Position numbers and translations under genes: made by a program. A stretch of DNA of 4,814 nt from a virus (taxonomy: Duplodnaviria; Heunggongvirae; Uroviricota; Caudoviricetes): IMG/VR virus record IMGVR_UViG_2778261560_000010; one strand, given 5' to 3'. Positions 1 through 4,814 of the stretch are shown here, piece after piece. Positions within the stretch are counted from its first letter, which is position 1. Every line of letters begins with the position of its first letter. The notes beneath the pieces are model-generated. The model searched no databases, was not told where the DNA came from, and worked only from the letters and a program-made list of their open reading frames with translations.

Positions 1-561
1 ATGCTGATTGGCTATATACGCGTATCAACAAATGACCAGAACACAGGTTTACAAAGAAATGCGCTGGAATGTGCAGGATGTGAGCTGATTTTTGAAGATA
101 AAATGAGCGGAAAAACAACGCAGCGGCCGGGACTGAAGCGGGCACTGAAGAAACTAAAACCCGGTGACACGCTGATGGTCTGGAAACTGGACAGGCTGGG
201 GCGCAGTATGCGCCACCTTGTTGCGCTGACAGATGAATTACAGCAACAGGGGATAAATTTTCGTAGTCTTACTGACAACATTGATACGTCAACCCCCATG
301 GGGCGCTTCTTTTTTCACATAATGGGTGCGCTGGCAGAAATGGAGCGTGAATTGATTGTCGAACGGACACGGGCTGGTCTTGCAGCTGCCCGTGAAAGGG
401 GACGAACCGGCGGCAGACCCCGCCGTCTCACGCAGGAACAATACGAGCAGGTCGGGCGTTTACTGGCCGGGGGTGTCAGCCGAAGACAGGTGGCACTTAT
501 TTTTGATATCGGCCTTTCAACCCTTTATCGTTATTATCCTGCGAGCGTTTCGGAAAAATAA
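1..561 (+). CDS. gin: Serine DNA invertase of the Gin/Cin/Pin/Hin family (N-terminal resolvase catalytic domain, C-terminal helix-turn-helix)
   Basis: 186-aa ORF beginning MLIGYIRVSTNDQ, with the conserved catalytic serine at residue 9 (codon 25-27) in the YxRVST(N/D)xQ motif. LDRLGRS and GRFFFH(I/V)MGALAEMERELI blocks and a C-terminal HTH segment (RRQVALIFDIGLSTLYR) closely resemble my recollection of Mu Gin and Salmonella Hin. TAA stop at 559-561. The gin symbol is chosen because com/mom lie downstream, as in Mu. Confidence 0.9.
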   Translation: MLIGYIRVSTNDQNTGLQRNALECAGCELIFEDKMSGKTTQRPGLKRALKKLKPGDTLMVWKLDRLGRSMRHLVALTDELQQQGINFRSLTDNIDTSTPMGRFFFHIMGALAEMERELIVERTRAGLAAARERGRTGGRPRRLTQEQYEQVGRLLAGGVSRRQVALIFDIGLSTLYRYYPASVSEK

Positions 562-651: not shown

Positions 652-2709
652 ATGAATATTATGACGTCCAAATGGGTTCAACTATCATCAATGCCCGGAA
701 ACTTTACCGTTAAAGTTTCCGGTGGTACAGCGGCATTTCTTGAGGCTCCCTTTCCTCCGGCTGAAACGAAAGGAGGAATGACATTTGCTGACTGTCTCAT
801 CAGTTTTAATACACGGGATTGCCTGTGGGTAAGGCCAGTATCCGGTGATCCGAACGTGGAAATTACCGGAGCGGGTATTGGTGCTGTCATTCCGTTAAGT
901 GCTGATGTTGCCGGTACTACTGAACCGTCAGACTGGGATAATGCTGAAACACATACCCGTCCGGCAGGAAATGAAACGGCTTCCAGCTCCCCTTCCTGGT
1001 ATTACGTGATTGTTATAGCCGGTCAGTCCAATGCTTCATCTTATGGTGAAGGGTTGCCCCTGCCGGATTCTTATGATCGTCCTGATCCACGTATTATGCA
1101 GCTGGCACGCAGGAATACACAAACCCCCGGAGGTATTCCCTGCAAATACAATGAAATCATTCCAGCAGATCACTGCCTTCATGATGTTCAGAATATGAGT
1201 CTGCTGAACCATCCAAAAGCAGACCTGAAAAAAGGGCAGTATGGTTGTGTGGGTCAGGGACTTCATATTGCGAAAAAAGTATTACCGGTGATTCCTGCTG
1301 ATGCCGGGATTTTACTGGTTCCCTGTGCCCGTGGCGGCTCTGCTTTTACAACCGGCGCAGTTGGCTCATTCGATCCGGCAAGTGGTGCAGCCGAGGCGTC
1401 ACTACGCTGGGGAGTGGATACCCCACTGTATCAGGATCTTGTCAGTCGAACGAAAGCGGCACTTGAGGCGAATCCAAAGAATGTGCTGTTATCTGTCGTA
1501 TGGATTCAGGGGGAAGGAGACCTTAAAGCGACCCCGGCCCAGCATGGTGCCCAGTTTACTGCGATGGTGAAAAAATTCCGTGCGGATCTTGGTGCTTTCT
1601 CCGGTCAGTGTATTGGTGGTTCATCAGACAGTGTGCCGTGGTTATGTGGTGACACAACCTATGACTGGAAAGAGAAGAACCCGGCGGCATATGAAACCAT
1701 TTATAGCGGATATAAAAACCGGGCTTCCGAGAACATTCACTTTGTTCCACTGATGCACGATGAGTTCGGTAATAAAACCGCGACCAACCTGCCGGAGCAC
1801 GACCCGGATATCGCTTCTGCCGGGTATTATGGTGCGGAATCACGGGGAGATGGCAACTGGACAACAGCATCCAGGGCAACCCATTTTAGCTCCTGGGCGC
1901 GCCGTTTTCTGGTCTCAGATCGTTTTGCATCAGCAATTCTTAAATATGCAGGTCTGACCTCTGCATTTATTGCCGGTGTGGCCCCTGATGGTGAAGCTCT
2001 GCCTCAGCCCGCGCCGGGTGGAAAACCGGAAGCGCCGACAGGTAGTCAGCCAGGAAGCAGTGAGTCCCCCCAGCCGACATCCCCGTCACTCCGTACGCTG
2101 CTTTCACTTAAAGCATCAGCAGGAGAAGCCCCGGCTCAGGGATGGAAAATTACAGATGGTACAATCCAGCTGACGGACGAAGGTAAAGCGCTGACCGTAT
2201 CCAAACAAAGCGGAAAAACCTGGTCACTTACCCATGCGACCAGTGCTGCCGGAGAACTGTTGCAGCATGGTGGTCAGTTGACCTGTAAATTCCGTCTGTC
2301 AGGTGAAGTAAAAGAAGGCCAGTTTGCTCTGGGTATTTACCTCCACACCGATACGGTCCCGGAAGGTGTAACCATGAGTGGTACAGGCACACCGTTCCTG
2401 ATGGCGTATTATCTCCAGACAACAGGCGGCCAGTTAAATCTGATGCACCATAAAACAGGGGGGAATACGAAACTGGGATCATTTGGAGCCTACAATAACC
2501 AGTGGCATACACTTGTCCTGAAGTTTACTGCGGGAAGTGCCCAGGTAACGCCTGTGCTGGATGGCACTCCGGGCCAGGCATTCCAGATGGTGAAAGATGC
2601 ACTTTCCCCTGCCAAAGATACGCTGACACTGACAGATGTCACCAAAGGGGCAACTTATGGCGTGTCTTTTGAGAGCGTTGTCCTTGAGGTTAATACCCCT
2701 GCGGCATAA
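652..2709 (+). CDS. Multidomain carbohydrate esterase: N-terminal ~115-aa domain, central SGNH/sialate-O-acetylesterase-like domain, Pro-rich linker, C-terminal lectin/LamG-like beta-sandwich domain; NanS-p-like prophage cargo protein
   Basis: Long 685-aa ORF with an AGGA Shine-Dalgarno at 643-646, 5 nt before the ATG at 652 (alternative in-frame ATG at 661). SGNH block I VIVIAGQSNASSYGEG, putative nucleophile Ser126 at codon 1027-1029. Further SGNH-like blocks PCARGGSAF and VVWIQGEGD. Low-complexity Pro/Ser linker PQPAPGGKPEAPTGSQPGSSESPQPTSPS around 1990-2090. The C-terminal ~200 aa is rich in beta-strand-type residues (NQWHTLVLKF). Assignment is motif-based only. Confidence 0.75.
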   Translation: MNIMTSKWVQLSSMPGNFTVKVSGGTAAFLEAPFPPAETKGGMTFADCLISFNTRDCLWVRPVSGDPNVEITGAGIGAVIPLSADVAGTTEPSDWDNAETHTRPAGNETASSSPSWYYVIVIAGQSNASSYGEGLPLPDSYDRPDPRIMQLARRNTQTPGGIPCKYNEIIPADHCLHDVQNMSLLNHPKADLKKGQYGCVGQGLHIAKKVLPVIPADAGILLVPCARGGSAFTTGAVGSFDPASGAAEASLRWGVDTPLYQDLVSRTKAALEANPKNVLLSVVWIQGEGDLKATPAQHGAQFTAMVKKFRADLGAFSGQCIGGSSDSVPWLCGDTTYDWKEKNPAAYETIYSGYKNRASENIHFVPLMHDEFGNKTATNLPEHDPDIASAGYYGAESRGDGNWTTASRATHFSSWARRFLVSDRFASAILKYAGLTSAFIAGVAPDGEALPQPAPGGKPEAPTGSQPGSSESPQPTSPSLRTLLSLKASAGEAPAQGWKITDGTIQLTDEGKALTVSKQSGKTWSLTHATSAAGELLQHGGQLTCKFRLSGEVKEGQFALGIYLHTDTVPEGVTMSGTGTPFLMAYYLQTTGGQLNLMHHKTGGNTKLGSFGAYNNQWHTLVLKFTAGSAQVTPVLDGTPGQAFQMVKDALSPAKDTLTLTDVTKGATYGVSFESVVLEVNTPAA

Positions 2710-2766
2710 TCGTGACGGCCGGGAATTTATCCGGCTGTAACATCAGTTAATAAGAGTGAGGCTTAT

Positions 2767-2946
2767 ATGACATATATAAACGTCTGCCTGCTGTATTTCT
2801 GCACGGTGGTTTGTTGTCTGTTGCTTGTCAGCGGTGGTTATAAAATTATTCGCAATTATTTTCGAAATAAAATTGATGCAGCTGCCGAGGAAAAGATAAA
2901 AAGCGGTGCTGTAATGCCGCAGCCGAAAGACTCCGGTCAGATTTAA
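2767..2946 (+). CDS. Small hydrophobic (single-pass membrane?) protein, 59 aa, unknown function; absent from the supplied ORF track
   Basis: ATG at 2767 preceded by GTGAGG (2756-2761) with a 5-nt spacer; TAA at 2944-2946. My translation: MTYINVCLLYFCTVVCCLLLVSGGYKIIRNYFRNKIDAAAEEKIKSGAVMPQPKDSGQI, i.e. an N-terminal hydrophobic Cys-rich helix followed by a charged tail. Sits 57 nt after the esterase stop and 35 nt before the next ORF, on the same strand. Confidence 0.4.
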   Translation: MTYINVCLLYFCTVVCCLLLVSGGYKIIRNYFRNKIDAAAEEKIKSGAVMPQPKDSGQI

Positions 2947-2981
2947 TTTTTTGTGAACCAGAAAAGGAAAGGAGAATATTC

Positions 2982-3227
2982 ATGCCAGAGATTAAAGGCA
3001 CGGTTACTGAAGAGCTTGTCAAACAGGCACTTTATTCTGAAGAAGTGAACCGCGTGCTGAAGGCGCAGGTTCGCAAGGATTTTGAGGCACAAATCGACGC
3101 ATATGTTGATGAAGTGCTGGCCCGAATGGTTGGTCGTTCTCCGGCTGAAAACAGCACGGAAAATGAGCCTCAACCCGTAGAGCAACCAGAGCCGGTTCAG
3201 CCCGGAACTGACGGTACTATGATGTAA
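2982..3227 (+). CDS. Hypothetical small acidic protein, 81 aa (helical N-terminal half, Pro/Glu-rich tail)
   Basis: Strong RBS AAGGAAAGGAGA (GGAG at 2971-2974) 7 nt before the ATG at 2982. Protein-like composition. Followed by a GC-rich hairpin at 3237-3256. The antisense ORF 2943..3314 looks like low-complexity junk by comparison. Confidence 0.55.
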   Translation: MPEIKGTVTEELVKQALYSEEVNRVLKAQVRKDFEAQIDAYVDEVLARMVGRSPAENSTENEPQPVEQPEPVQPGTDGTMM

Positions 3228-3236
3228 CAATACCGA

Positions 3237-3267
3237 CCGGCAGGTTTCCCTGCCGGGTGAATTTGTT
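3237..3267. terminator. Candidate bidirectional intrinsic terminator between convergent small ORFs
   Basis: Perfect 8-bp GC-rich inverted repeat CCGGCAGG (3237-3244), loop TTTC, CCTGCCGG (3249-3256), followed on the + strand by GTGAATTTGTT. Lies between the stop of the + strand ORF (3227) and the stop of the minus-strand ORF (3266). The U-tract is imperfect. Confidence 0.35.
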
Positions 3268-3436
3268 AATGCACGTTTTGTGTATTTTCCCTCCGGGGAG
3301 AACAGGCAGGACATATCAGCATCCTGAAACAGGAAGCATTTTTTGGTTTGTATGTCTTGCCATTTTGAGATCGAGAACGGCGATAGATGAGCTGTAAGGG
3401 AGTCTTACAGGCAGGGCAAACAGGCTCTTTATCCAT
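3266..3436 (-). CDS. Putative small zinc-ribbon protein, 56 aa (two CPAC motifs), unknown function
   Basis: Minus-strand ORF; I place the start at the ATG at 3434-3436 because it has a perfect AAGGAG Shine-Dalgarno 9 nt upstream on the minus strand (revcomp of 3446-3451). The track's 64-aa version begins at an upstream ATG (3460) lacking an SD. Translation MDKEPVCPACKTPLQLIYRRSRSQNGKTYKPKNASCFRMLICPACSPRRENTQNVH contains CxxC...CxxC. Stop at 3266-3268. Confidence 0.35.
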   Translation of the reverse strand: MDKEPVCPACKTPLQLIYRRSRSQNGKTYKPKNASCFRMLICPACSPRRENTQNVH

Positions 3437-3512
3437 GATAAAGATCTCCTTTTTATGCATCTCTGCTTTACAGGAGACCGGGGAATATCATAGGATACGC
3501 CACGAGCTCAGA

Positions 3513-3672
3513 GTGAAGCATTGATGCTGTTTTTTACAGATTGACCCAGAATAGTTCGCGCTATCTGAGTCGCCATTTATGTAGTCCCGAAGTAAAGCAT
3601 TGATGCAAACTTGTCTAAATCGGCCCAGCATAGTTCCAGCTATGCTGGGTCTCCCTTTTATGTAGTATCCTG
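3513..3672. repeat. Two tandem imperfect direct repeats of ~79-81 bp (roughly 70% identical by eye)
   Basis: Unit A 3513-3591 and unit B 3592-3672 share GT(G/A)AAGCATTGATGC, a CCCAG.ATAGTTC..GCTAT core and TTTATGTAGT. Unit B carries a perfect 10-bp inverted repeat CCCAGCATAG (3624-3633), loop TTCCAG, CTATGCTGGG (3640-3649), followed by TCTCCCTTTTAT; the unit A copy is degenerate. Both units contain the small dyad GCAT-TG-ATGC. Confidence 0.55.
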
Positions 3673-3699
3673 TTGATTTGAAACATACTACATATACGC

Positions 3700-3922
3700 G
3701 CGATCCTACCTTCACTGGATAAAAAGTCAATAAAATGATCATTTTATGATCGTTTTCACCACCTAAGTCTTCGTTTTCTTTAAGTAAATAATCACCGCCC
3801 TGAATCATTGTTGATGACTTTTAAATCTATTTGTTGTATCAATTAAACAAATCGAATCGATCGTTTTTGTCGATCGATTGCATGAAAAAGGCATCAACAA
3901 CAAAGCAGGAGGTTATGCGGCC
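3700..3922 (+). promoter_or_regulatory. com-mom upstream regulatory region with clustered Dam (GATC) sites; candidate methylation-sensitive promoter region
   Basis: Five GATC sites in ~180 bp, at 3702, 3737, 3748, 3859 and 3872, against roughly ten in the 2-kb esterase gene. Two lie in direct repeats AATGATCATTTT / TATGATCGTTTT (3734-3756); two lie in a perfect 9-bp inverted repeat AATCGATCG (3855-3863), 7-nt spacer, CGATCGATT (3871-3879). Candidate weak sigma70 hexamers are ATGACT (3814-3819) / 17 bp / TATCAA (3837-3842), or alternatively a -10 like TAAATAAT (3785-3792) with a poor -35. com RBS CAGGAGG at 3906-3912. Confidence 0.5.
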
Positions 3923-4123
3923 ATGTATCGAAACATACGGTGCCGACACTGCAATAAGCTACTGGCACGGGCCAGTTTCAGTTATCTGGAAGTAAAATGT
4001 CCGCGCTGTAAAACCCTCAATCAAATCACATCTCCGAGCGCCACAGAGCACCCCACATACACAAGGAAATCCTGTCGTGGGGAACAAAAAGCAAGTTACA
4101 TCCCGTATCATCAGCACGCCTGA
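3923..4123 (+). CDS. com: Com-like zinc-finger translational activator of mom
   Basis: 66-aa ORF from the ATG at 3923, with CAGGAGG 10 nt upstream. [31 protein letters not shown] has the C-x2-C-x15-C-x2-C spacing and resembles Mu Com as I recall it (MKSIRCKNCNKLL...IRCPRCK). The track's 81-aa version starts at a TTG at 3878 inside the GATC palindrome, which I consider an artefact. Overlaps the next ORF by 47 nt. Confidence 0.8.
4051..4082 (+). promoter_or_regulatory. Candidate mRNA stem-loop sequestering the mom Shine-Dalgarno and GTG start (putative target of Com-dependent translational activation)
   Basis: CCCCAC (4051-4056) is the exact reverse complement of GTGGGG (4077-4082), which contains the mom GTG start. 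The 20-nt intervening sequence carries the SD-like AAGGAAA (4063-4069). Consistent with the known Mu mechanism in which Com binding unmasks the mom translation start. Confidence 0.4.
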
Positions 4124-4814
4124 ACTTATTCGCTATAACGACAATATCGTTGGTTATGGCTCCCGTGAGTTACGGGTTGAGACAATAAGTTGCTGGCTGG
4201 CCCGACTGGTCATCGTCAATAAACATTACAGCCACCGTTTCGTAAATAATTCATACCTTCATCTGGGCATATTTTCAGAACGGGAACTTGTTGGCGTAAT
4301 GCAATGGGGTTACGCCCTTAACCCAAACAGTGGTGCACGCGTCGTAACGGGTACGCAGAACCGAGAATATATGGAGCTGAACCGGCTATGGCTGCATGAC
4401 TGTATGCCGAGAAACTCCGAATCAAGGGCGATCAGTTACGCGCTCAAGCTAATCAGGCAGCTTTATCCGCAGGTGCAGTGGGTTCAGTCGTTTGCAGATG
4501 AGCGTTGTGGCTGTCTTGGTGTCGTGTATCAGGCAAGCAATTTTGATTATGTAGGCAGCCATGAATCAACATTCTATGAACTTGATGGCGAGTGGTATCA
4601 CGAGATTTGCAGGAATGCCATTAAACGAGGCGGACAACGAGGTGAACATCTGAGGGCTAATATCGACAGAGCCAGTGTGCATAAGTTCCAACAGTTTCGT
4701 TACATCCGGTTTCTGAACAAGAGGGCCAGAAAACGCCTCAACACAAAGCTATTCAAAGTCCAGCCTTACCCAAAACCACAAACAGTTAAAACTGGTTTGA
4801 AAGAGAGTGAATGA
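4077..4814 (+). CDS. mom: Mom-like DNA modification protein (adenine N6-acetamido/carbamoylmethyl modification enzyme of Mu-like phages)
   Basis: 245-aa [34 protein letters not shown]..., resembling Mu Mom as I recall it. Start is a GTG at 4077, the first possible start after the in-frame stop at 3993-3995, with AAGGAAA 7 nt upstream. Begins inside the 3' end of com, as in Mu. TGA stop at 4812-4814, the last bases of the window. Confidence 0.85.

Follow-up and report, generated by a model that had tools for sequence, protein, structure and literature searches.

The DNA analysed here, a stretch of 4,814 nucleotides referred to below as the window, belongs to a Mu-like E. coli prophage and forms its right end. 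The window opens with the invertase gene gin, which lies 3' of the tail-fibre genes and is listed in RefSeq as 'recombinase family protein', and closes with com and mom, which overlap in the same arrangement as in Mu (Table 1). The gin-to-com spacing is 94 bp in Mu, whereas here about 3.3 kb of extra DNA, bounded by gin on the left and com on the right, carries a NanS-p-type esterase gene, two small genes (ORF59 and ORF81, with 59 and 81 codons respectively) and a decayed region. The decayed gene, a 106-aa fragment of which matches phrog_26524 (E 5e-35), occupies most of the gap between ORF81 and com and is likewise extra relative to Mu. Searches for tRNAs and Rfam families gave no matches in the window, and no lysis gene is found within 8 kb on either side of the small-gene pair in the Mu-like prophage.

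Table 1. Genes and sequence features of the window; positions count from its first nucleotide.
Feature	Position	Strand	Evidence
gin (Gin/Cin-type serine DNA invertase, Mu-like prophage)	1..561	+	Pfam Resolvase E 5e-51 plus HTH_7
NanS-p-type carbohydrate (sialate O-acetyl) esterase, 685 aa	652..2709	+	Pfam SASA, DUF6645; phrog_143
Stem-loop	2712..2741	+	RNA fold -17.5 kcal/mol, z = -2.1
Shine-Dalgarno GAGG, 5 nt 5' of ORF59 ATG	2758..2761	+	Read from sequence
ORF59, DUF1378 family, 59 aa, ATG start	2767..2946	+	Pfam PF07125, phrog_494, alignments, AF2, dN/dS
Shine-Dalgarno AAGGAG, 7 nt 5' of ORF81 ATG	2969..2974	+	Read from sequence
ORF81, DUF826 family, 81 aa, ATG start	2982..3227	+	Pfam PF05696, phrog_311, alignments, AF2, dN/dS
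GC-rich 8-bp stem-loop CCGGCAGG-TTTC-CCTGCCGG, 10 nt past ORF81 stop codon	3237..3256	+	RNA fold
Decayed frameshifted gene	3266..3808	-	RefSeq 'hypothetical protein, frameshifted'; phrog_26524
com (translational activator of mom)	3923..4123	+	Pfam Zn_ribbon_Com E 2e-12; annotation
mom (DNA modification gene)	4077..4814	+	Pfam Mom E 4e-77; Mu layout

The esterase matches the Pfam families SASA (E 2e-13) and DUF6645 (E 6e-26) as well as phrog_143 (E 1e-273), and is 51-56% identical to the NanS-p esterases of lambdoid phages. Residues 1-123 have no Pfam match to DUF1737, a domain that is present in the esterases of VT2-Sakai and of locus L115.

The initial annotation described ORF59 and ORF81 as two plus-strand reading frames with good Shine-Dalgarno sites and short intercistronic gaps, and suggested that they form an operon with the esterase. 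The frames and ribosome-binding sites are present as described, and the gaps are 57 nt from the esterase stop codon to ORF59 and 35 nt from the ORF59 stop codon to ORF81. The plus strand shows no promoter-like site between positions 700 and 3460, and no sigma-70-like site beyond chance was detected upstream of either ORF59 or the esterase. The hairpin that follows the ORF81 stop codon has a folding energy of -25.7 kcal/mol (z = -5.1; none of 200 shuffled sequences was equally stable) and a weak U-tract, and probably closes the transcription unit of esterase, ORF59 and ORF81 at its 3' end. The stem-loop between the esterase and ORF59 is moderately stable, has no U-tract and probably does not act as a full terminator. 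The stretch free of plus-strand promoters, the hairpin behind ORF81 and a gene order that recurs in other phages all argue that the three genes probably share one transcription unit. No terminator was detected in the window between gin and this unit. Since the unit follows gin in this way, read-through from gin, and with it expression in the lysogen, is possible in the Mu-like context.

Both small genes belong to families that are already catalogued. ORF59 aligns with Pfam DUF1378 (PF07125) at 83.8 bits (E 9e-24), its residues 1-48 on positions 1-48 of the 59 in the profile, and with phrog_494 (E 4e-29). ORF81 aligns through residues 1-52 with Pfam DUF826 (PF05696) at 56.5 bits (E 3e-15) and with phrog_311 (E 5e-30). 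The curated Pfam gathering cut-off is 25 bits for each family. The initial annotation, which recognised no family and recommended such profile searches, had called the pair unannotated. That holds for the gene track with which it was supplied; RefSeq annotates both, as WP_000221106.1 'DUF1378 family protein' and WP_001114107.1 'DUF826 domain-containing protein'. The exact sequence of ORF59 occurs in at least 1000 public contigs, and so does that of ORF81.

The membrane-like character first ascribed to the 59-aa product agrees with its hydropathy. A hydrophobic stretch spans residues 4-22 (Kyte-Doolittle mean 2.46), the C-terminal flank of this segment carries 4 K/R in 15 residues, and the pI is 8.8. 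AF2 models a single helix over residues 2-45 with a mean pLDDT of 61, which is moderate confidence only. The predicted architecture starts with a transmembrane segment at about residues 4-24, continues with a basic juxtamembrane helix of conserved sequence (SGGYKxIRNY..KIDAxA) and ends in a tail that varies. These are the traits of the DUF1378 class, whose members have about 50-70 aa, an N-terminal hydrophobic helix and a core of the form SGGYK(I/V)IRNY..K(I)DAxA. In the family alignments G23, G24, Y25, I36, A40 and K43 are invariant, and S22, K26, I28, R29, Y31, K35 and D37 are kept in at least 90% of sequences. From its sequence ORF59 is predicted to be a single-pass inner-membrane protein with its N-terminus out and its C-terminus in. 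One source labels it 'TRAP transporter small permease', which is annotation noise that no family search backs.

ORF81 is acidic, as first described, with a pI of 4.4, a net charge of -8 and no hydrophobic segments. AF2 places helices at residues 10-17 and 20-50, with pLDDT above 90 for 20-50 and below 50 for 56-81. The conserved N-terminal region of about 50 residues in the DUF826 alignments, M-P/S-E-I-K..VT..VK.AL.S..V...LK.Q.R, is present in ORF81 and predicted to be helical. The tail is disordered and Pro/Glu-rich and ends in a conserved hydrophobic tip, ..PGTDxTMM. The protein is predicted to be soluble and cytoplasmic, with a long helix and a disordered tail. Solved-structure and fold searches gave no significant match, and the fold search is uninformative because the query is a lone helix. 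Several annotations and family candidates were discarded. The 'head completion protein' label that DUF826 bears in PhiR12 phage records finds no backing in any family search and is annotation noise. Two large proteins returned by an exhaustive search (P0191, P0205) are repeat-driven false positives. YbcW and YnfO of K-12, considered as possible family members, were rejected; YnfO is a DUF3950 protein, and neither profile matches DLP12 or Qin.

Both genes evolve under purifying selection. The median dN/dS is 0.13 for the DUF1378 core and 0.135 for the DUF826 core, and differences at third codon positions are in excess in each. When the comparison is confined to alleles of the Mu-like context, pN/pS comes to 0.26 (DUF1378) and 0.16 (DUF826). 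The initial annotation had named absence of a synonymous-site pattern as a result that would speak against genuine genes; the pattern is there. Both reading frames are genuine genes, conserved among phages.

The conservation of the pair across related prophages, for which the initial annotation had asked, is extensive. The order esterase, DUF1378, DUF826 on one strand is kept in about 75 viral contigs and in more than 300 phage records. The contigs are split between lambdoid backbones, where the holin gene S and then R follow, and Mu-like backbones, where the block lies between gin and com mom. In more than 300 lambdoid phages, mostly Shiga-toxin phages, it lies in the late operon, with the antiterminator gene Q (or stx) on one side and the holin gene S on the other; the same block is found in VT2-Sakai, PhiR12_4 and Citrobacter prophages, and it stands upstream of several different holin families. 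Phage records number 309 for DUF1378 and 307 for DUF826, with near-identical organism breakdowns, and the pair is confined to the genera Escherichia, Shigella, Citrobacter and Cedecea. The window shows that a Mu-like prophage has taken up the esterase-DUF1378-DUF826 block, which now lies between gin and com/mom.

The pair is a tightly linked but optional two-gene module directly 3' of the NanS-p-type esterase. An obligate accessory of the esterase is ruled out: among 74 esterase-anchored IMG/VR loci, 71 have an unrelated spacer of about 400 nt in place of the pair, and about 40 of the 347 esterase-bearing phage records lack it. The spacer was checked as a decayed copy of the pair and is not one. 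The architecture DUF1737-SASA-DUF6645 is common to esterases that have the pair and esterases that lack it. Either small gene can also stand alone. Intact DUF1378 without DUF826 was found at 8 or more loci (L055-L059, L100-L102) and DUF826 without DUF1378 at 7 or more (L095, L096, L103-105, L193, L195). Solo copies of either gene often lie at the edge of the lysis cassette; solo DUF1378 overlaps the Rz stop codon in L058 and L059, and solo DUF826 is directly 3' of Rz/Rz1 in L103-105, L193 and L195. The presence or absence of the pair is polymorphic at three accessory-gene sites, namely between Q and S, after Rz, and at the Mu right end after the tail fibres.

This distribution argues against two functions that the initial annotation had proposed by resemblance. 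The pair is very probably not a toxin/antidote system and ORF59 very probably not the holin of its phage, because the module is optional and each gene occurs alone in other phages, often at a lysis-cassette edge; the esterase, too, is independent of the pair. Toxin and antidote would be expected to pair obligately, and here each gene is found intact without the other. PADLOC found no defence match in the window, and the Pfam and NCBIfam searches returned only the two DUF families or noise, with no toxin, antitoxin or defence family. What stands of the holin proposal is the generic shape, a small protein with one transmembrane segment and a charged hydrophilic C-terminus, which is not diagnostic. 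Neither Pfam (E up to 1) nor PHROGs gave a holin family for ORF59, and the only lysis-related match was to an Rz-like spanin at a non-significant E of 0.21. The lambdoid relatives have a recognised holin of their own beside the pair (S in VT2-Sakai and PhiR12_4, Phage_holin_2_1 or Phage_holin_2_3 elsewhere), and the Mu-like prophage has none of the lysis genes close by.

A literature search returned no experiment or paper that assigns a function to DUF1378 or DUF826. The explanation favoured here, with somewhat more confidence than doubt, is that these two catalogued families form an optional module encoding a late, membrane-associated accessory complex. The three genes would be co-transcribed and expressed during lytic growth. 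The single helix of ORF59 would enter the inner membrane, leaving 3-4 N-terminal residues in the periplasm and the conserved basic amphipathic helix on the cytoplasmic face. ORF59 may then recruit ORF81 to that face through helix-helix contacts and charge complementarity. The one apparent natural DUF1378::DUF826 fusion, P0197, was rejected as evidence that the two proteins interact; it is an assembly artefact, on a contig full of frameshifted genes. The complex would be an accessory that the phage can do without and that modulates a late event linked to the membrane.

The best single guess, put forward tentatively and at less than even odds, is that this event is lysis and release, of which the complex would set the timing or the efficiency. 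Several observations count against it. The holin families that accompany the pair are several and unrelated, the pair lies far from lysis genes in Mu-like prophages, and it is missing from phages that have the same S21-type pinholin. Lysis-cassette edges are also generic hot spots for the insertion of accessory genes. A role with the neighbouring sugar-active enzyme is a less likely identity for the event, as is a host-directed or exclusion role, and the rest of the probability falls to other events.

The enzyme role can be framed as a reading in its own right, in which the pair, or at least DUF826, tethers, times, chaperones or helps to process the NanS-p esterase before release. In the sampled loci of both backbones the long-tailed DUF826 and its DUF1378 partner are always directly 3' of the esterase, and the Mu-like phage acquired all three genes together. 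A mosaic exchange between the window (1720-2967) and locus L004 swapped the C-terminal half of the esterase and DUF1378 as a block. Short solo DUF826 genes adjoin a phrog_4603 protein, 'alpha-2,3-sialyltransferase', in two gene orders and once adjoin a GT25 glycosyltransferase. In addition, the phi24B virion study reports that gp84, a NanS-p esterase that decorates the capsid, is virion-bound and proteolytically processed (bioRxiv 10.64898/2026.04.10.717836); however, the passages searched in it do not mention either small protein. The esterase, moreover, very often occurs without the pair and with the same domain architecture, solo DUF1378 and several solo DUF826 genes have no sugar-active neighbour, and the sialyltransferase is so named by PHROG only, its Pfam match being below the cut-off. 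Linkage alone can explain the adjacency. The chances that the pair serves the esterase in this manner appear low.

Equally doubtful is that the pair acts on the host, with DUF1378 behaving like other small single-pass regulators of the inner membrane and binding a conserved host membrane protein through its invariant transmembrane and juxtamembrane core and DUF826 serving as a cytoplasmic cofactor. Such a moron could block the entry of superinfecting phage DNA, or could alter a transporter, a protease or the division machinery. The transmembrane core is conserved far beyond the needs of a simple anchor, and the polymorphism at accessory-gene sites in three backbones, the narrow range of host genera and the possible expression in a lysogen behind gin are all consistent with it. 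However, no promoter of its own was detected, and the lambdoid region is late and induction-dependent, a poor fit to exclusion expressed from a prophage. Neither protein is similar to any defence or exclusion family.

That DUF1378 is a holin- or viroporin-like permeabilising peptide restrained by DUF826, a reading near to the holin-like and toxin/antidote proposals of the initial annotation, is improbable. ORF59 is small, with one transmembrane segment and a charged C-terminal tail, and its conserved membrane segment carries polar and small residues (Y, C, T, S, G); DUF1378 adjoins lysis genes in the lambdoids, and the charge of ORF81 is complementary. But both genes persist as solo copies, a recognised holin is present in every lambdoid context, and no holin, toxin-antitoxin or defence model matches. 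Finally, chance reading frames in non-coding DNA 3' of the esterase, a reading to which the shortness of both frames and the size of ORF59 below common gene-calling thresholds might lend colour, are refuted by the conservation pattern, with curated family matches, dN/dS of about 0.13, Shine-Dalgarno sites and occurrence in two backbones and several genera.

The closest known counterpart of the window is the block of Shiga-toxin phages such as 933W and VT2-Sakai. DUF1378 and DUF826 reading frames between nanS-p and S of Stx-converting lambdoid phages have been mentioned before, and nanS-p expression in lambdoid phages rises by 1-2.4 logs with mitomycin C (PMC10462455). The Stx-phage block has the same Pfam and PHROG families in the same order and on the same strand, 3' of a SASA/DUF6645 esterase, and in both settings the genes are separate cistrons, each with its own ribosome-binding site. 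The window differs in its Mu-like, myovirus-type backbone, in the gin-com/mom site in place of the Q-S site and in having no adjacent lysis genes. Unlike the Stx-phage esterases, its esterase is without the capsid-binding DUF1737 N-terminus. Relative to the Stx-phage copies ORF59 is 44-59% identical and ORF81 37-50% identical.

The finding is sound but ordinary, as the families and the pair were already known, and it does not overturn current understanding. It adds that the pair is a discrete and optional unit, each gene of which occurs solo elsewhere and on which the esterase does not depend, and that the whole esterase block moved into Mu-like prophages with its capsid-binding domain replaced. 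Its importance is modest: in most Shiga-toxin phages sequenced so far these genes neighbour stx and the lysis genes, they occur in thousands of E. coli contigs and they are under clear purifying selection, and a role in lysis timing or esterase handling, if true, would bear on toxin release from STEC. A stronger claim, that the pair is a dedicated membrane-tethered partner of phage sialic-acid-active enzymes (the NanS-p esterase and, in other phages, the sialyltransferase-like protein) or else a holin-independent lysis-timing device, is rather improbable. If it were true, the pair would influence how and at what time STEC cells release esterase, virions and Shiga toxin, and in its capture by Mu-like prophages together with the esterase a functional unit of three genes would have spread, without mere hitch-hiking.

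Three further systems offer partial parallels. In phage T4, RI and RIII are a membrane-anchored antiholin and a small cytoplasmic cofactor that control the timing of lysis. The likeness would be one of mechanism only, a dispensable small pair, one member membrane-anchored and the other soluble and cytoplasmic, acting late. The working domain of RI is periplasmic, whereas that of DUF1378 is predicted to be cytoplasmic, and there is no sequence or family relation; unlike RI/RIII, DUF1378 and DUF826 accompany several unrelated holin families and also occur far from lysis genes. HK97 gp15 and T4 Imm are small inner-membrane superinfection-exclusion morons whose genes are active in the prophage or early during infection. 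They resemble the pair as small inner-membrane phage proteins that lie at accessory-gene sites with presence/absence polymorphism. They differ from it in that there is no homology, no separate promoter was found for the pair, and its lambdoid copies sit in an induction-dependent late operon. Host regulators of the AcrZ, MgrB and SgrT type are single-pass membrane proteins of about 50-60 aa that bind a larger membrane protein. They are chromosomal, not phage-borne, and unrelated in sequence to DUF1378, and what they have in common with ORF59 is the length of about 50-60 aa and one transmembrane helix of conserved sequence.

The two small reading frames downstream of the NanS-p-type esterase, ORF59 and ORF81, belong to the Pfam families DUF1378 (83.8 bits) and DUF826 (56.5 bits), the cut-off being 25 for each. 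The initial annotation had placed both frames exactly. Its description was also confirmed: the Shine-Dalgarno sequences are good (GAGG 5 nt before ORF59, AAGGAG 7 nt before ORF81), gaps of 57 and 35 nt separate the cistrons, a single strongly hydrophobic segment (residues 4-22, mean Kyte-Doolittle 2.46) is present in the 59-aa product, and the 81-aa product is acidic (pI 4.4, net charge -8). The pair had been called unannotated and without a recognised family. Both genes are in fact already catalogued and annotated, as "DUF1378 family protein" and "DUF826 domain-containing protein" in RefSeq and as phrog_494 and phrog_311 in PHROGs, neither with an annotated function. At least 1000 public contigs carry the exact ORF59 sequence, and at least 1000 the exact ORF81 sequence. 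One public source names the exact ORF59 [quoted passage not shown], and GenBank records of PhiR12 phages name the DUF826 homologue "head completion protein"; both names were rejected, being backed by no family search.

Conservation of the coding pattern, on which the initial annotation had staked the reality of the frames, was found in both genes. Pairwise comparison of distinct alleles from related loci gave a median dN/dS of 0.129 over 218 pairs of DUF1378 cores and 0.135 over 169 pairs of DUF826 cores; in both, third codon positions differ two to three times as often as the others. For the alleles from the Mu-like context only, pN/pS is 0.26 (DUF1378) and 0.16 (DUF826).

The window is the right end of an E. 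coli Mu-like prophage. In one RefSeq genome, Mu-type baseplate and tail-fibre genes lie immediately upstream of a 98.5% identical copy, and beyond mom comes host DNA. Copies spanning 80% or more of the window were found in 37 of the 5426 complete E. coli genomes searched, those listed at full length being ~98% identical. As the gin-com spacing in phage Mu is 94 bp, this prophage has ~3.3 kb of extra DNA there, consisting of the esterase, ORF59, ORF81 and ~650 nt of decayed or non-coding sequence.

Positions and properties of features in the window
Feature	Position	Strand	Basis or property
Gin/Cin-type invertase	1-561		Pfam
Esterase, 685 aa, SASA + DUF6645	652-2709	+	Pfam
Hairpin after esterase stop codon		+	modest, without U-tract, z = -2.1
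ORF59, 59 aa	2767-2946	+	DUF1378
ORF81, 81 aa	2982-3227	+	DUF826
GC-rich strong hairpin after ORF81 stop codon	3237-3256		-25.7 kcal/mol, z = -5.1
Frameshifted gene remnant	3266-3808	minus	RefSeq: hypothetical protein, frameshifted
Two tandem unit copies, 79 nt apart	3512-3670
Second hairpin of tandem unit	3622-3651		-23.3 kcal/mol, z = -4.3; very stable, terminator-like
Two TCGATCG palindromes (GATC sites)	3850-3885		~40-70 nt 5' of com
Com	3923-4123		Pfam
Mom	4077-4814		Pfam

The simplest reading of the sequence is a single esterase-ORF59-ORF81 transcription unit. The operon proposed in the initial annotation is thus reasonable, as no sigma-70-like site beyond chance was found on the plus strand from 700 to 3460 and the strong hairpin follows ORF81. 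In Stx phages mitomycin C raises nanS-p transcription 1-2.4 logs, in step with stx2a (PMC10462455), which makes the lambdoid copies of the pair late genes. In the window no terminator was detected between gin and the unit downstream of it, so the unit may be expressed at a low level in the Mu-like lysogen.

ORF59 is predicted to span the inner membrane once, as a bitopic protein, with its basic helix in the cytoplasm. The N-out/C-in orientation follows from the positive-inside rule, the N-terminus being uncharged and four Lys/Arg lying within 15 residues past the helix. Its AlphaFold2 model is one unbroken helix, residues 2-45, of moderate confidence (mean pLDDT 61). Alignments of DUF1378 proteins, whose identity is otherwise 40-60%, show hardly any change in the transmembrane helix and in the juxtamembrane motif L-x-SGGYK-x-IRNY...K-I-D-A-x-A, and free variation in the C-terminal tail. 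ORF81 shows no hydrophobic segment by hydropathy; the prediction is an acidic helix in the cytoplasm, followed by a disordered tail. The conserved part of DUF826 is the first ~50 residues, modelled by AlphaFold2 as a short helix and then one long helix (20-50, pLDDT above 90); the remainder is a disordered tail rich in Pro/Glu, and most long forms keep a hydrophobic tip (..TMM, ..TML, ..LMQQ) at the extreme C-terminus. Neither profile matched a solved structure, and a fold search with the DUF826 model gave nothing significant, as expected of a lone helix.

The two genes are tightly paired. In a curated phage collection searched at the protein level, there are 309 records with DUF1378 and 307 with DUF826, and the two sets come from almost the same spread of organisms, mainly Stx-converting lambdoid phages. 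VT2-Sakai, PhiR12_4 and Citrobacter prophages have the order Q (- stx) - esterase - DUF1378 - DUF826 - holin S - R - Rz. HMM and BLAST scoring of the neighbours at 85 viral-contig loci found esterase, DUF1378 and DUF826 in this order, on a single strand, in essentially all. The loci are split about evenly between a lambdoid backbone, in which S and R come next, and a Mu-like one, in which the genes lie between gin and com/mom. Both families are small and limited to Enterobacteriaceae; the named DUF1378 matches are all from Escherichia or Shigella and a few Citrobacter and Cedecea. Out of 1.84 billion representatives, an exhaustive profile search gave only 40 DUF826 matches at E up to 0.001, two of them repeat-driven false positives. 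An apparent DUF1378::DUF826 fusion (P0197) carries no weight as evidence, since frameshifts riddle the assembly that it comes from.

The pair is optional, and it is not needed by the esterase. At 71 of 74 informative IMG/VR loci anchored on the esterase, drawn from the best 80 of 553 matches by similarity to the window esterase (a sample in which one clade is over-represented), the esterase is followed by ~400 nt and an S21-type pinholin, with neither DUF1378 nor DUF826; the absence was confirmed on raw translations. The spacer is unrelated to the pair, save for the last 72 nt before S. The curated set has the esterase in 347 records and the pair in about 308, and the DUF1737-SASA-DUF6645 architecture is common to esterases with and without the pair. 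Among esterase-carrying records, the pair is present in 124/124 that are Stx2a-converting and only 26/47 that are Stx1a-converting, a difference that may be a lineage effect.

Each gene also occurs alone. Solo DUF1378 is found as the last lysis-cassette gene, with an ATG that overlaps the stop codon of Rz (L058, L059), between tail-fibre genes and a Dam-type methyltransferase in other Mu-like prophages (L056, L057, L100-102, two of them Cedecea), and amid tail genes (L055). Solo DUF826 is a short, tail-less form, immediately 3' of Rz/Rz1 (L103-105, L193, L195) or further downstream, ahead of the terminase (L096); DUF1378 is absent from these six loci. L103-L105, on E. coli-type contigs, look like a satellite or degraded element (DUF927 primase, SSB, PerC, AlpA, Hok), in which the short DUF826 (5001-5186) comes after an Rz/Rz1-like remnant and before a 192-aa protein without a family match. 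Elsewhere it is linked, in two gene orders (L193 4306-6944 and L195 1460-4098; L096 2898-4901), to a conserved gene set: a 178-180-aa phrog_4603 protein labelled "alpha-2,3-sialyltransferase" (Pfam MptE-like match below cut-off), a 287-aa phrog_6804 protein without annotated function, and a Methyltransf_23 methyltransferase. Counting the esterase context, DUF826 would twice adjoin putative sialic-acid-type enzymes.

The esterase itself differs at its N-terminus. The first ~105 residues (window 652-1020, residues 1-123) matched neither DUF1737, by which lambdoid NanS-p esterases bind the capsid, nor any other Pfam family and have only weak PHROGs matches, to families without annotated function. 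A 2026 preprint shows that the esterase of phi24B decorates the capsid in processed form, held there through its DUF1737 N-terminus (bioRxiv 10.64898/2026.04.10.717836). The lack of DUF1737 here would suit a virion of another kind. On entry of the block into the Mu-like phage, the domain for capsid anchoring was apparently exchanged for another, possibly one suited to that virion. L004 is a Mu-like prophage inside the Stx1a phage LC727895.1. Its alignment with the window is sharply mosaic: identity is 86% over 1-1719 and 96-97% over 2968-4093, and 1720-2967, with the esterase C-terminal half and DUF1378, is barely alignable (ORF81 100% identical, ORF59 59%). A block with these two, ending in the ORF59-ORF81 intergenic region, was exchanged between the two Mu-like prophages.

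ORF59 and ORF81 would form a small complex at the cytoplasmic face of the membrane, made in lytic growth and serving as a dispensable accessory. Tentatively, it may modulate the timing of lysis or release: the pair or its members recur at both edges of the lysis cassette, and membrane location and late expression suit such a role, but the holins downstream belong to several unrelated families, the pair is missing from otherwise similar phages and its position in Mu-like phages is unlinked. A partnership with the neighbouring sugar-active enzyme is rather unlikely, even though in the loci sampled the long DUF826 form never lacked an upstream esterase, DUF1378 was swapped as one block with the C-terminal half of the esterase, and solo DUF826 lies beside the phrog_4603 protein in two gene orders. 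A host-directed or exclusion role is similarly doubtful, and the remaining probability falls to something not yet considered. The initial annotation was sound as an observation, and its specific functional suggestions mostly found no support. ORF59 as a holin was rejected: it matched no holin family, in lambdoid phages a recognised holin gene always adjoins, and within 8 kb of the Mu-like copy there is no lysis gene. A toxin/antidote pair should leave neither partner alone and intact, whereas each is found so, and no toxin-antitoxin or defence model matched.

The closest known counterparts are the homologous ORFs between nanS-p and S of Stx phages, mentioned in passing and without function (PMC10462455). 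The literature searched contained no functional data for DUF1378 or DUF826 and nothing linking the NanS-p block to Mu-like phages. T4 RI/RIII, HK97 gp15 and host small membrane regulators may offer mechanistic leads, not family membership. The significance is modest; the gene pair is very widespread and lies next to stx.

The space between the pair and com is occupied by the gene remnant, of which a 106-aa fragment matches phrog_26524 (E 5e-35) and a 64-aa fragment has two CPAC motifs and a zinc ribbon-like look. Each tandem unit consists of a conserved leader, AGTrAAGCATTGATGC, an inverted repeat and the motif CCwTTTATGTAGT; Rfam and tRNA searches gave no match. The Mu mom promoter has a control region with Dam methylation and OxyR, which the TCGATCG palindromes recall. 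In a deletion variant of the Mu-like prophage (P0090, a protein cluster from 2 contigs), DUF826 residues 1-35 are joined in frame to a small ORF just 5' of com (window 3831-3995), the deletion taking out the remaining ORF81 and the non-coding stretch.
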